The notes under the pieces: generated by a model
What the model saw: only the letters and a program-made list of their open reading frames with translations
The model's database searches: none
What the model was told of the DNA's origin: nothing
Program-made: the position numbers and the translations under genes
Origin: Escherichia phage T7
Sequence record: LR745706
Direction: 5' to 3' (one strand)
Length of the DNA stretch: 38,449 bases
In this document: positions 33,501 through 38,449 of the stretch, in pieces
Numbering within the stretch: position 1 is the stretch's first letter
Layout: each line of letters starts with the position of its first letter

Positions 33501-34552
33501 TAGGGACCTTGAAGTATTCAACACAGGAACTGGCTGCTCGCTCTCCGTGGACTAAGCTACTGAACGGAACCACTAACTACCTTCTGGATGCTGCGCGTCA
33601 AGGTATGCTTGGGGATGTTATTAGTGCCACCCTAACAGGTAAGACTACCCGCTGGGAGAAAGAAGGCTTCCTTCGTGGTGCCTCCGTAACTCCTGAGCAG
33701 ATGGCTGGCATCAAGTCTCTCATCAAGGAACATATGGTACGCGGTGAGGACGGGAAGTTTACCGTTAAGGACAAGCAAGCGTTCTCTATGGACCCACGGG
33801 CTATGGACTTATGGAGACTGGCTGACAAGGTAGCTGATGAGGCAATGCTGCGTCCACATAAGGTGTCCTTACAGGATTCCCATGCGTTCGGAGCACTAGG
33901 TAAGATGGTTATGCAGTTTAAGTCTTTCACTATCAAGTCCCTTAACTCTAAGTTCCTGCGAACCTTCTATGATGGATACAAGAACAACCGAGCGATTGAC
34001 GCTGCGCTGAGCATCATCACCTCTATGGGTCTCGCTGGTGGTTTCTATGCTATGGCTGCACACGTCAAAGCATACGCTCTGCCTAAGGAGAAACGTAAGG
34101 AGTACTTGGAGCGTGCACTGGACCCAACCATGATTGCCCACGCTGCGTTATCTCGTAGTTCTCAATTGGGTGCTCCTTTGGCTATGGTTGACCTAGTTGG
34201 TGGTGTTTTAGGGTTCGAGTCCTCCAAGATGGCTCGCTCTACGATTCTACCTAAGGACACCGTGAAGGAACGTGACCCAAACAAACCGTACACCTCTAGA
34301 GAGGTAATGGGCGCTATGGGTTCAAACCTTCTGGAACAGATGCCTTCGGCTGGCTTTGTGGCTAACGTAGGGGCTACCTTAATGAATGCTGCTGGCGTGG
34401 TCAACTCACCTAATAAAGCAACCGAGCAGGACTTCATGACTGGTCTTATGAACTCCACAAAAGAGTTAGTACCGAACGACCCATTGACTCAACAGCTTGT
34501 GTTGAAGATTTATGAGGCGAACGGTGTTAACTTGAGGGAGCGTAGGAAATAA
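30596..34552 (+). CDS. 16: Internal virion protein D (gp16) with N-terminal lytic transglycosylase domain
   Basis: ORF track 1318 aa; N-terminal SLT-like motifs (TESRFVPTAKSKTGPLGMMQF...AYNQGEG). Confidence 0.97.
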   Translation: MDKYDKNVPSDYDGLFQKAADANGVSYDLLRKVAWTESRFVPTAKSKTGPLGMMQFTKATAKALGLRVTDGPDDDRLNPELAINAAAKQLAGLVGKFDGDELKAALAYNQGEGRLGNPQLEAYSKGDFASISEEGRNYMRNLLDVAKSPMAGQLETFGGITPKGKGIPAEVGLAGIGHKQKVTQELPESTSFDVKGIEQEATAKPFAKDFWETHGETLDEYNSRSTFFGFKNAAEAELSNSVAGMAFRAGRLDNGFDVFKDTITPTRWNSHIWTPEELEKIRTEVKNPAYINVVTGGSPENLDDLIKLANENFENDSRAAEAGLGAKLSAGIIGAGVDPLSYVPMVGVTGKGFKLINKALVVGAESAALNVASEGLRTSVAGGDADYAGAALGGFVFGAGMSAISDAVAAGLKRSKPEAEFDNEFIGPMMRLEARETARNANSADLSRMNTENMKFEGEHNGVPYEDLPTERGAVVLHDGSVLSASNPINPKTLKEFSEVDPEKAARGIKLAGFTEIGLKTLGSDDADIRRVAIDLVRSPTGMQSGASGKFGATASDIHERLHGTDQRTYNDLYKAMSDAMKDPEFSTGGAKMSREETRYTIYRRAALAIERPELQKALTPSERIVMDIIKRHFDTKRELMENPAIFGNTKAVSIFPESRHKGTYVPHVYDRHAKALMIQRYGAEGLQEGIARSWMNSYVSRPEVKARVDEMLKELHGVKEVTPEMVEKYAMDKAYGISHSDQFTNSSIIEENIEGLVGIENNSFLEARNLFDSDLSITMPDGQQFSVNDLRDFDMFRIMPAYDRRVNGDIAIMGSTGKTTKELKDEILALKAKAEGDGKKTGEVHALMDTVKILTGRARRNQDTVWETSLRAINDLGFFAKNAYMGAQNITEIAGMIVTGNVRALGHGIPILRDTLYKSKPVSAKELKELHASLFGKEVDQLIRPKRADIVQRLREATDTGPAVANIVGTLKYSTQELAARSPWTKLLNGTTNYLLDAARQGMLGDVISATLTGKTTRWEKEGFLRGASVTPEQMAGIKSLIKEHMVRGEDGKFTVKDKQAFSMDPRAMDLWRLADKVADEAMLRPHKVSLQDSHAFGALGKMVMQFKSFTIKSLNSKFLRTFYDGYKNNRAIDAALSIITSMGLAGGFYAMAAHVKAYALPKEKRKEYLERALDPTMIAHAALSRSSQLGAPLAMVDLVGGVLGFESSKMARSTILPKDTVKERDPNKPYTSREVMGAMGSNLLEQMPSAGFVANVGATLMNAAGVVNSPNKATEQDFMTGLMNSTKELVPNDPLTQQLVLKIYEANGVNLRERRK

Positions 34553-34572
34553 TACGACTCACTATAGGGAGA
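34550..34572 (+). promoter_or_regulatory. T7 promoter phi17 (class III), here driving trxA
   Basis: taatacgactcactatagggaga followed by the native gene 17 leader gaggcgaaataatcttctccctgtagtctcttagatttactttaaggaggtcaaATG. Confidence 0.92.
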
Positions 34573-34624
34573 GGCGAAATAATCTTCTCCCTGTAGTCTC
34601 TTAGATTTACTTTAAGGAGGTCAA

Positions 34625-34954
34625 ATGAGCGATAAAATCATTCACCTGACCGATGACTCTTTTGATACCGACGTGCTGAAAGCTGATGGTGCAATTCTGG
34701 TTGATTTCTGGGCAGAGTGGTGCGGCCCTTGCAAAATGATCGCTCCAATCCTGGACGAAATTGCGGACGAATATCAGGGTAAGCTGACTGTGGCCAAACT
34801 GAACATTGACCAGAACCCTGGCACCGCACCGAAATACGGTATCCGTGGCATCCCAACTCTGCTGCTGTTCAAAAACGGTGAAGTGGCAGCAACCAAAGTA
34901 GGCGCTCTGTCTAAAGGCCAACTGAAAGAGTTCCTGGACGCCAACCTGGCTTAA
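34625..34954 (+). CDS. trxA: Thioredoxin 1 (E. coli TrxA protein), at the position normally occupied by tail-fibre gene 17
   Basis: ORF track 109 aa, [109 protein letters not shown], which I recognise as E. coli thioredoxin with the WCGPC active site. It uses the gene 17 promoter and ribosome-binding site. No gp17-like ORF exists anywhere in the window. Confidence 0.97.
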
Positions 34955-35015
34955 TGATTGGTAAATCACAAGGAAAGACGTGTAGTCCACGGATGGACTC
35001 TCAAGGAGGTACAAG

Positions 35016-35219
35016 GTGCTATCATTAGACTTTAACAACGAATTGATTAAGGCTGCTCCAATTGTTGGGACGGGTGTAGCAGATGTTAGTGCTCGACTGT
35101 TCTTTGGGTTAAGCCTTAACGAATGGTTCTACGTTGCTGCTATCGCCTACACAGTGGTTCAGATTGGTGCCAAGGTAGTCGATAAGATGATTGACTGGAA
35201 GAAAGCCAATAAGGAGTGA
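35016..35219 (+). CDS. 17.5: Holin (gp17.5)
   Basis: ORF track 67 aa with a GTG start; MLSLDFNNELIKAAPIVGTGVADVSARLFFGLSLNEWFYVAAIAYTVVQIGAK, one hydrophobic segment. Confidence 0.9.
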   Translation: MLSLDFNNELIKAAPIVGTGVADVSARLFFGLSLNEWFYVAAIAYTVVQIGAKVVDKMIDWKKANKE

Positions 35220-35224
35220 TATGT

Positions 35225-35494
35225 ATGGAAAAGGATAAGAGCCTTATTACATTCTTAGAGATGTTGGACACTGCGATGGCTCAGCGTATGCTTGCGGACC
35301 TTTCGGACCATGAGCGTCGCTCTCCGCAACTCTATAATGCTATTAACAAACTGTTAGACCGCCACAAGTTCCAGATTGGTAAGTTGCAGCCGGATGTTCA
35401 CATCTTAGGTGGCCTTGCTGGTGCTCTTGAAGAGTACAAAGAGAAAGTCGGTGATAACGGTCTTACGGATGATGATATTTACACATTACAGTGA
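35225..35494 (+). CDS. 18: Terminase small subunit (gp18)
   Basis: MEKDKSLITFLEMLDTAMAQRM... in-frame ATG inside ORF 35216..35494; 89 aa. Confidence 0.88.
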   Translation: MEKDKSLITFLEMLDTAMAQRMLADLSDHERRSPQLYNAINKLLDRHKFQIGKLQPDVHILGGLAGALEEYKEKVGDNGLTDDDIYTLQ

Positions 35495-35495
35495 T

Positions 35496-35545
35496 ATACT
35501 CAAGGCCACTACAGATAGTGGTCTTTATGGATGTCATTGTCTATA
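35496..35545 (+). promoter_or_regulatory. RNase III processing hairpin R18.5
   Basis: atactcaaggccactacagatagtggtctttatggatg motif. Confidence 0.6.
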
Positions 35546-35588
35546 CGAGATGCTCCTACGTGAAATCTGAAAGTTAACGGGAGGCATT

Positions 35589-36020
35589 ATGCTAGAATTT
35601 TTACGTAAGCTAATCCCTTGGGTTCTCGCTGGGATGCTATTCGGGTTAGGATGGCATCTAGGGTCAGACTCAATGGACGCTAAATGGAAACAGGAGGTAC
35701 ACAATGAGTACGTTAAGAGAGTTGAGGCTGCGAAGAGCACTCAAAGAGCAATCGATGCGGTATCTGCTAAGTATCAAGAAGACCTTGCCGCGCTGGAAGG
35801 GAGCACTGATAGGATTATTTCTGATTTGCGTAGCGACAATAAGCGGTTGCGCGTCAGAGTCAAAACTACCGGAACCTCCGATGGTCAGTGTGGATTCGAG
35901 CCTGATGGTCGAGCCGAACTTGACGACCGAGATGCTAAACGTATTCTCGCAGTGACCCAGAAGGGTGACGCATGGATTCGTGCGTTACAGGATACTATTC
36001 GTGAACTGCAACGTAAGTAG
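35589..36020 (+). CDS. 18.5: i-spanin (Rz-like, gp18.5)
   Basis: ORF track 143 aa; N-terminal transmembrane segment then a charged coiled-coil-like region. Confidence 0.9.
   Translation: MLEFLRKLIPWVLAGMLFGLGWHLGSDSMDAKWKQEVHNEYVKRVEAAKSTQRAIDAVSAKYQEDLAALEGSTDRIISDLRSDNKRLRVRVKTTGTSDGQCGFEPDGRAELDDRDAKRILAVTQKGDAWIRALQDTIRELQRK
35704..35955 (+). CDS. 18.7: o-spanin (Rz1-like lipoprotein, gp18.7), embedded in gene 18.5 in another frame
   Basis: ORF track 83 aa with the lipobox-like LICVATISGCAS; fully nested within 18.5. Confidence 0.8.
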   Translation: MSTLRELRLRRALKEQSMRYLLSIKKTLPRWKGALIGLFLICVATISGCASESKLPEPPMVSVDSSLMVEPNLTTEMLNVFSQ

Positions 36021-36041
36021 GAAATCAAGTAAGGAGGCAAT

Positions 36042-37802
36042 GTGTCTACTCAATCCAATCGTAATGCGCTCGTAGTGGCGCAACTGAAAGGAGACTTCGT
36101 GGCGTTCCTATTCGTCTTATGGAAGGCGCTAAACCTACCGGTGCCCACTAAGTGTCAGATTGACATGGCTAAGGTGCTGGCGAATGGAGACAACAAGAAG
36201 TTCATCTTACAGGCTTTCCGTGGTATCGGTAAGTCGTTCATCACATGTGCGTTCGTTGTGTGGTCCTTATGGAGAGACCCTCAGTTGAAGATACTTATCG
36301 TATCAGCCTCTAAGGAGCGTGCAGACGCTAACTCCATCTTTATTAAGAACATCATTGACCTGCTGCCATTCCTATCTGAGTTAAAGCCAAGACCCGGACA
36401 GCGTGACTCGGTAATCAGCTTTGATGTAGGCCCAGCCAATCCTGACCACTCTCCTAGTGTGAAATCAGTAGGTATCACTGGTCAGTTAACTGGTAGCCGT
36501 GCTGACATTATCATTGCGGATGACGTTGAGATTCCGTCTAACAGCGCAACTATGGGTGCCCGTGAGAAGCTATGGACTCTGGTTCAGGAGTTCGCTGCGT
36601 TACTTAAACCGCTGCCTTCCTCTCGCGTTATCTACCTTGGTACACCTCAGACAGAGATGACTCTCTATAAGGAACTTGAGGATAACCGTGGGTACACAAC
36701 CATTATCTGGCCTGCTCTGTACCCAAGGACACGTGAAGAGAACCTCTATTACTCACAGCGTCTTGCTCCTATGTTACGCGCTGAGTACGATGAGAACCCT
36801 GAGGCACTTGCTGGGACTCCAACAGACCCAGTGCGCTTTGACCGTGATGACCTGCGCGAGCGTGAGTTGGAATACGGTAAGGCTGGCTTTACGCTACAGT
36901 TCATGCTTAACCCTAACCTTAGTGATGCCGAGAAGTACCCGCTGAGGCTTCGTGACGCTATCGTAGCGGCCTTAGACTTAGAGAAGGCCCCAATGCATTA
37001 CCAGTGGCTTCCGAACCGTCAGAACATCATTGAGGACCTTCCTAACGTTGGCCTTAAGGGTGATGACCTGCATACGTACCACGATTGTTCCAACAACTCA
37101 GGTCAGTACCAACAGAAGATTCTGGTCATTGACCCTAGTGGTCGCGGTAAGGACGAAACAGGTTACGCTGTGCTGTACACACTGAACGGTTACATCTACC
37201 TTATGGAAGCTGGAGGTTTCCGTGATGGCTACTCCGATAAGACCCTTGAGTTACTCGCTAAGAAGGCAAAGCAATGGGGAGTCCAGACGGTTGTCTACGA
37301 GAGTAACTTCGGTGACGGTATGTTCGGTAAGGTATTCAGTCCTATCCTTCTTAAACACCACAACTGTGCGATGGAAGAGATTCGTGCCCGTGGTATGAAA
37401 GAGATGCGTATTTGCGATACCCTTGAGCCAGTCATGCAGACTCACCGCCTTGTAATTCGTGATGAGGTCATTAGGGCCGACTACCAGTCCGCTCGTGACG
37501 TAGACGGTAAGCATGACGTTAAGTACTCGTTGTTCTACCAGATGACCCGTATCACTCGTGAGAAAGGCGCTCTGGCTCATGATGACCGATTGGATGCCCT
37601 TGCGTTAGGCATTGAGTATCTCCGTGAGTCCATGCAGTTGGATTCCGTTAAGGTCGAGGGTGAAGTACTTGCTGACTTCCTTGAGGAACACATGATGCGT
37701 CCTACGGTTGCTGCTACGCATATCATTGAGATGTCTGTGGGAGGAGTTGATGTGTACTCTGAGGACGATGAGGGTTACGGTACGTCTTTCATTGAGTGGT
37801 GA
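36042..37802 (+). CDS. 19: Terminase large subunit (gp19)
   Basis: ORF track 586 aa. Confidence 0.97.
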
Positions 37803-37883
37803 TTTATGCATTAGGACTGCATAGGGATGCACTATAGACCACGGATGGTCAGTTCTTTAAGTTACTGAAAAGACACGATAAAT

Positions 37884-37906
37884 TAATACGACTCACTATA
37901 GGGAGA
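37884..37906 (+). promoter_or_regulatory. T7 promoter phiOR
   Basis: attaatacgactcactatagggagag. Confidence 0.9.
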
Positions 37907-38060
37907 GGAGGGACGAAAGGTTACTATATAGATACTGAATGAATACTTATAGAGTGCATAAAGTATGCATAATGGTGTACCTAGAGTGACCTCTAAGAAT
38001 GGTGATTATATTGTATTAGTATCACCTTAACTTAAGGACCAACATAAAGGGAGGAGACTC

Positions 38061-38210
38061 ATGTTCCGCTTATTGTTGAACCTACTGCGGCATAGAGTCA
38101 CCTACCGATTTCTTGTGGTACTTTGTGCTGCCCTTGGGTACGCATCTCTTACTGGAGACCTCAGTTCACTGGAGTCTGTCGTTTGCTCTATACTCACTTG
38201 TAGCGATTAG
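38061..38210 (+). CDS. 19.5: gp19.5 small hydrophobic protein
   Basis: ATG after GGGAGGAG; 49 codons (MFRLLLNLLRHRVTYRFLVVLCAALGYASL...). Confidence 0.65.
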   Translation: MFRLLLNLLRHRVTYRFLVVLCAALGYASLTGDLSSLESVVCSILTCSD

Positions 38211-38269
38211 GGTCTTCCTGACCGACTGATGGCTCACCGAGGGATTCAGCGGTATGATTGCATCACACC

Positions 38270-38449
38270 ACTTCATCCCTATAGAGTCAAGTCCTAAGGT
38301 ATACCCATAAAGAGCCTCTAATGGTCTATCCTAAGGTCTATACCTAAAGATAGGCCATCCTATCAGTGTCACCTAAAGAGGGTCTTAGAGAGGGCCTATG
38401 GAGTTCCTATAGGGTCCTTTAAAATATACCATAAAAATCTGAGTGACTA
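38270..38449 (+). repeat. Right-end short repeat region (CCTAAAG / CCTAAGG / CCTATAG units) before the right terminal repeat
   Basis: tcctaaggtatacccataaagagcc...tatcctaaggtctatacctaaagataggcc...tcacctaaagagg; the window ends where the right terminal repeat would start. Confidence 0.7.

Follow-up and report, generated by a model that had tools for sequence, protein, structure and literature searches.

A T7 Genome with a Recoded trxA Marker in the Place of Gene 17: Match to the Published phAG_7 Design

How does a phage come to keep the gene for a replication cofactor behind the promoter of a late structural gene? In the 38,449 nucleotides analysed here (sequence record LR745706, the whole of which we call the window), the thioredoxin gene trxA of Escherichia coli lies behind the class III promoter phi17 of bacteriophage T7, and we argue that it was put there by people. 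With a probability that we would set at about 96%, the window is an engineered T7 whose sequence is indistinguishable from the phAG_7 design (vector pAG29) of Grigonyte et al. (2020, Viruses 12:193). That attribution rests on identity of design together with a stock-specific SNP, not on a match of accessions.

A preliminary description of this DNA had treated the arrangement as a piece of phage biology. In that it was mistaken: the placing of trxA under a late promoter comes from a published cloning design, and the man-made marker swap is recognisable from its match to a printed g-block, from the recoding of its codons and from arms that belong to a laboratory stock. Below, we describe the cassette and the genome around it, weigh the ways in which it might have arisen and then take up the question of whether thioredoxin supplied in this manner would come too late for replication.

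The cassette and the genome that carries it

The window spans all of T7 and includes the 160-bp terminal repeat once. By blastn, its positions 1-34627 correspond to 1-34626 of the reference NC_001604, with one 1-bp insertion and one substitution, and its positions 34957-38449 correspond exactly to 36285-39777 of the reference; both arms are 100% identical to LR745710, the Warwick laboratory wild-type T7. The sole gross change in the genome lies where T7 34624-36285 has become window 34625-34957, that is, where the 1662-bp open reading frame (ORF) of gene 17, which encodes the tail fibre, has been swapped from ATG to stop for 333 bp consisting of trxA with its TAA and an extra TGA. The features that the argument needs are these:

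14354-16468, plus strand: gene 5 (T7 DNA polymerase), placed by the annotation of the identical parent LR745710
24164-24211, plus strand: Tphi, the sole T7 RNA polymerase terminator, a hairpin followed by a T-run (CTAGCATAACCCCTTGGGGCCTCTAAACGGGTCTTGAGGGGTTTTTTG), annotated in NC_001604
27258-27280, plus strand: class III promoter phi13, an exact copy of the consensus, annotated in NC_001604
34550-34572, plus strand: T7 class III promoter phi17 (-17 to +6), matching the consensus at 23 of 23 positions and identical to wild type
34567-34624, plus strand: native leader of the gene 17 mRNA, kept as wild-type T7 sequence up to the ATG
34625-34954, plus strand: synthetic, synonymously recoded E. 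coli trxA ORF (109 amino acids and TAA), occupying precisely the site of the gene 17 ORF
34955-34957, plus strand: extra TGA from the synthetic cassette, giving a TAATGA double stop; the right junction to native T7 falls at 34957/34958
34958-35219, plus strand: native 17/17.5 intergenic region and gene 17.5 (holin, 35016-35219), 100% identical to LR745710 from its position 36287

The promoter is beyond dispute. A scan of the window with the 23-bp T7 promoter consensus finds TAATACGACTCACTATAGGGAGA at 34550-34572 with no mismatches; exact copies number six in the window against a chance expectation of zero, and the remaining ones coincide with phi6.5, phi9, phi10, phi13 and phiOR as annotated in NC_001604. 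The feature "T7 promoter phi17" of that record, at 34566, falls on window position 34567, which is thus the +1 of the transcript. The flanks of phi17 are wild type as well, and the promoter sits between gene 16 and the start of gene 17, 3' of Tphi. Here, the preliminary description, which had placed a phi17-driven trxA downstream of Tphi at 34550-34954, was exact: those coordinates hold the promoter and the trxA ORF, with Tphi upstream. The leader also retains its parts, a 5' hairpin at 34567-34591 (by folding) and the Shine-Dalgarno sequence AAGGAGG at 34614-34620, unchanged from wild type. The swap keeps phi17, the leader and the ribosome-binding site, and trxA thus takes over the expression signals of gene 17.

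At the far end, the wild-type sequence ...GAGTAATTGGTAAATCAC is replaced in the window by ...GCTTAATGATTGGTAAATCAC, and the same TAATGA junction is found in LR745709 and in the published g-block. Gene 17.5 now follows directly 3' of trxA on a common phi17 transcript; as a side effect, the extra TGA has lengthened the 17/17.5 intergenic spacer by 3 bp relative to wild type.

Has gene 17 simply been moved elsewhere? It has not: two T7 arms and the 333-bp cassette cover all 38,449 bases, and with every base assigned, a tail-fibre gene is absent from the entire window. A phage lacking gene 17 makes fibreless particles, so that its progeny are infectious only when gp17 is provided in trans. That trxA stands in the place of an essential gene is a point that the preliminary description had left unmentioned.

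What the cassette encodes is the thioredoxin of the host. The product of the ORF at 34625-34954 is identical to E. coli TrxA (WP_001280776) at 109 of 109 residues, carries the WCGPC active site, scores 249.3 bits against the NCBIfam TrxA equivalog NF006898 (cutoff 138) over residues 1-109 of 109 and matches the thioredoxin chain of the T7 DNA polymerase complexes 1t7p and 1skr (E = 2.5e-70). From this identity and the literature, one would expect the encoded TrxA to bind gp5 and confer processivity on it. The nucleotides tell of a different history. Compared with native E. coli trxA DNA, that of the window has 46 differences spread over 45 of 110 codons, and all 46 are synonymous (none is non-synonymous). 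Against all 5426 complete E. coli genomes, the identity of the trxA DNA falls in the range of 80-90% (the best is 86.1%), and the copies in Salmonella stand at ~84%. In the phage collection, a trxA with 100% identical DNA is found only in LR745707, LR745708 and LR745709, in all three of which it is annotated as trxA. A natural trxA allele as the source can be set aside, given these values for E. coli and Salmonella and the exact match to the g-block. The paper of Grigonyte et al. (2020) contains no rationale for recoding the codons (the word "codon" occurs in it 0 times).

A few details of the backbone deserve a place here. The left 160 bp (1-160) are present, the right terminal repeat is missing and the end of the window at 38449 is T7 position 39777; the right repeat is missing from the sibling assemblies too (LR745710 has 39778 bp). 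This is probably a collapse in short-read assembly, and the packaged genome would then be ~38.6 kb. At 1897, in the region of gene 0.6B, the window has one extra A relative to NC_001604/V01146, common to AY264774 and the LR7457xx records; it is a known difference between reference and stock and no new mutation. At 11062-11063, in gene 3.5 (lysozyme), the window, like NC_001604 and the Warwick stock, has TG against the GT of AY264774, a difference among reference records that has nothing to do with trxA.

Where the construct came from

The most direct evidence is a printed sequence. Figure S7 of Grigonyte et al. gives the "HR1-trxA-HR2 g-block", and its 522-nt text copy, aligned with window 34525-35048, shows not one mismatch and only four 1-base gaps, gaps of a kind consistent with bases dropped when the text of the PDF was read by machine. 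Searched against the phage collection, the junction region finds as its best match a sibling construct, at 83% query cover.

A single base ties the backbone to the same laboratory. At 24158, the window has T where NC_001604 and AY264774 have C, and among 50,697 phage records, that T occurs in four, LR745707 to LR745710, all from the same project. Since it is confined to these four Warwick records, the T is a stock-specific marker. It changes the last sense codon of the frameshifted gene 10B from CAA to TAA, so that gp10B is one residue shorter, at a site just upstream of Tphi.

That the records and the paper belong together follows from yet another base. LR745709 is phPM, a T7/Yep-phi fusion, and it has G at 26042 (gene 12), where the window and wild type have A; this matches, offset by one, the entry "phPM 26041 A>G, I>M" in Table S6. 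The paper (PMC7077284; project PRJEB35760) describes the use of trxA as a marker for the selection of T7 tail-fibre mutants. Sequencing covered the wild type and four mutants, which are not named, and the paper gives SNPs for only three mutants (phAG_3, phAG_4 and phPM); such a list fits with a fourth mutant free of SNPs, as the window is. Recombinants were selected on BW25113 deleted for trxA and carrying pAG30 or pAG31 to provide wild-type fibres, and 10 of 10 phAG_7 plaques screened were recombinant; on BW25113 deleted for trxA, wild-type T7 plates with an efficiency of ~1e-10. The assembly primers for pAG30 apparently put g17 behind a T7 promoter (Grigonyte et al. 2020).

Set beside phAG_7 (pAG29), the window shows the same ORF-precise swap of g17 for trxA, the same recoded trxA and the same HR1/HR2 junctions, including TAATGA. 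Its SNP at 24158 is that of the parental stock of the phAG_7 project, and no difference from the phAG_7 design was detected.

How would such a phage work? In the published design, trxA serves as a positive selection marker, codon-recoded and set in place of gene 17 from ATG to stop. Thioredoxin is, according to the literature, a host factor that T7 cannot do without, being a subunit of the gene 5 DNA polymerase on which processivity depends, and in BW25113 deleted for trxA wild-type T7 fails to replicate. In the scheme that we propose, the recombinant would produce TrxA for itself, by way of phi17, phi13 and read-through, once T7 RNA polymerase had internalised the region; phage-made TrxA would bind gp5, and replication would proceed. 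Tail fibres would come from the host plasmid pAG30, with its T7 promoter, and the progeny would be infectious for one further round and would not propagate on hosts lacking the plasmid. The position of trxA, we infer, was set by the choice of gene 17 as the target of the knockout, and any effect on timing would be a by-product.

Could a wild T7 lineage instead have taken up the trxA of its host and evolved its expression from a late promoter? Some natural phages do have thioredoxin genes (TrxA-like ones, at <60% identity, are present in 150 phage records), and the idea is in that sense a reasonable one to raise. Yet capture would have had to replace an essential gene precisely from ATG to stop, with a double stop added; it would have had to leave the protein exactly that of the host while altering 45 of 110 codons synonymously, so that no E. 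coli genome reaches 90% identity in DNA; and it would have had to happen between flanks that show zero divergence from a laboratory stock, to give a sequence that is also in print as a synthetic g-block. Among T7 records in the phage collection, moreover, any trxA at all, and this recoded one in particular, is confined to the three engineered siblings. A natural phage-borne thioredoxin would have natural relatives, would have diverged from that of the host and would replace no essential gene, and the one in the window shows none of this. We regard natural acquisition as next to impossible.

Slightly less improbable, though still very unlikely in our judgment, is that the sequence is an artefact of assembly or a design that existed only in silico, with no real phage genome behind it. 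Outside the cassette, the sequence is that of the parent, and the right terminal repeat is absent, as often happens in short-read assemblies; both points would fit with such an artefact. The sibling records, however, lack the repeat likewise, and a collapsed repeat at the end of the genome leaves the trxA junction unaffected. Grigonyte et al. (2020) report confirmation by PCR and Sanger sequencing, whole-genome sequencing of mutants, assembly with SPAdes and polishing with pilon, all of which speak for a phage that was made and sequenced.

Late supply of thioredoxin and the timing of replication

The preliminary description had reasoned that thioredoxin is needed at the time of the middle genes, that a trxA-deficient host would leave the first rounds of replication dependent on late or read-through transcription and that a delayed or reduced burst should be the result. 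The dependence is real. Because trxA has no promoter of its own, the polymerase cofactor in a trxA-deleted host has to come from class III or read-through transcription: the gene is read from phi17 and from transcripts that arrive from upstream. Of the upstream promoters whose transcripts also cross trxA, phi13 is the closest, and from phi13 through phi17 to the right genome end, the annotation of NC_001604 has no terminator. The cassette lies ~10 kb downstream of Tphi, and genes 3' of Tphi do receive read-through transcripts.

The size of the problem is where the earlier reasoning gives way. The class II product of gene 5 depends on TrxA as a subunit for processivity, and from gene 5 to trxA is a distance of 20.3 kb; at 37 °C, T7 RNA polymerase draws the DNA into the cell at ~15-22 kb/min, from which we compute an entry time of ~55-81 s for that distance. 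A re-analysis of RNA-seq data (PMC6938266) found that every T7 gene is expressed by 5 min at 37 °C, roughly uniformly except for a drop after Tphi (a drop, no stop), with similar patterns for class II and class III. In the same study, class III transcripts at 10 min stood below those of class I and class II when the temperature was 30 °C, and class III is described in the literature as predominating late in infection. The separation between middle and late genes is therefore less sharp than had been assumed. Given an entry time of about 1 min and expression of the whole genome by 5 min (37 °C), the expected lag in TrxA is small.

Translation may add something of its own. In folds of the mRNA from 34567 to 34690, the mean probability that the Shine-Dalgarno sequence is unpaired is 0.19 with trxA in place versus 0.38 with gene 17; pairing is thus predicted to increase with trxA, and this modest gap might lower translation somewhat. 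These folds are purely in silico, and we have set them aside as evidence for impaired initiation.

Would the late wiring of trxA, then, delay replication to a degree that matters biologically and lower the burst on hosts deleted for trxA? We lean against it. On the side of a delay, one can count the position of trxA, without a class II promoter, 20.3 kb beyond gene 5 and past Tphi, where transcript levels drop; the lower class III transcripts at 30 °C; the somewhat lower accessibility predicted for the ribosome-binding site; and the advantage of a trxA+ host, which holds pre-made TrxA and need synthesise none. Against these stand the early and similar expression of class II and class III genes at 37 °C, the brevity of the entry lag and the plain success of the construct, in that phages that carry trxA in the gene 17 site or directly behind it plaque on trxA-deleted hosts and are selected efficiently. 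A small delay is plausible. Our search of the literature found no growth-curve, burst or latent-period data for trxA-marked T7 on trxA-deleted hosts.

One-step growth on plain wild-type versus trxA-deleted hosts, the check that had been proposed, is unworkable, since the phage has no gene 17. The comparison would have to be made in a trxA-deleted host that complements gp17, and there, T7 DNA synthesis might begin measurably later and the burst be smaller than on a trxA+ host, or than for a phage with a class II trxA, a possible outcome that we do not quite expect. If it were nevertheless true, the construct would be a ready-made tool for asking how the timing and dosage of a cofactor limit T7 replication.

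Other trxA phages and the meaning of the arrangement

The siblings of the window are its nearest kin. LR745707, LR745708 and LR745709 are T7 phages with chimeric tail fibres followed by trxA, and their trxA marker, 3' junction and backbone are identical to those of the window. The difference is in gene 17. In LR745709, the chimeric gene 17 is kept and trxA comes after it, as in all of the chimeric mutants (Table S4 footnote, Grigonyte et al. 2020), whereas the window has no gene 17; and trxA in LR745709 has a ribosome-binding site of its own, TTAAGGAGGTAACCCATG, whereas that of the window uses the gene 17 site directly.

The idea has also been realised independently. A T7 g17<>trxA made by lambda Red recombineering (Antibiotics 2020;9:805, PMC7697293) embodies the same concept in a separate construct: like the phAG_7 design, it exchanges essential g17 for trxA, is selected on a trxA-deleted host and relies on gp17 supplied in trans, but there, a lambda pL cassette in the host chromosome, and no plasmid, provides gp17. 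A further T7 with E. coli trxA, in gene 3.8, resembles the window in carrying trxA and in growing on trxA mutant hosts, and differs in that its trxA sits among the class II genes (DNA metabolism) and gene 17 is kept; it is the natural comparator for the effect of marker position on timing. Earlier knockouts of genes 0.4, 11, 12 and 17 by trxA replacement are reportedly work of the Qimron laboratory. These knockouts are cited by Grigonyte et al. (2020) as their refs 16-18.

True phage thioredoxins look quite different. Burkholderia phages BcepSauron and FLC9 and Streptomyces phages share with the window the possession of a thioredoxin-fold protein, but theirs are ≤55% identical to TrxA and reside in unrelated, mostly large genomes; none is a T7-like marker swap.

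What does all of this mean for T7? A host replication cofactor under the promoter of a structural gene is an odd regulatory layout, and here it is the scar of a published piece of engineering, a caution that synthetic constructs in public databases can pass for biology. The effect of the position of the marker on the kinetics of T7 may be of interest to phage engineers who use trxA selection; the understanding of T7 itself is unchanged.
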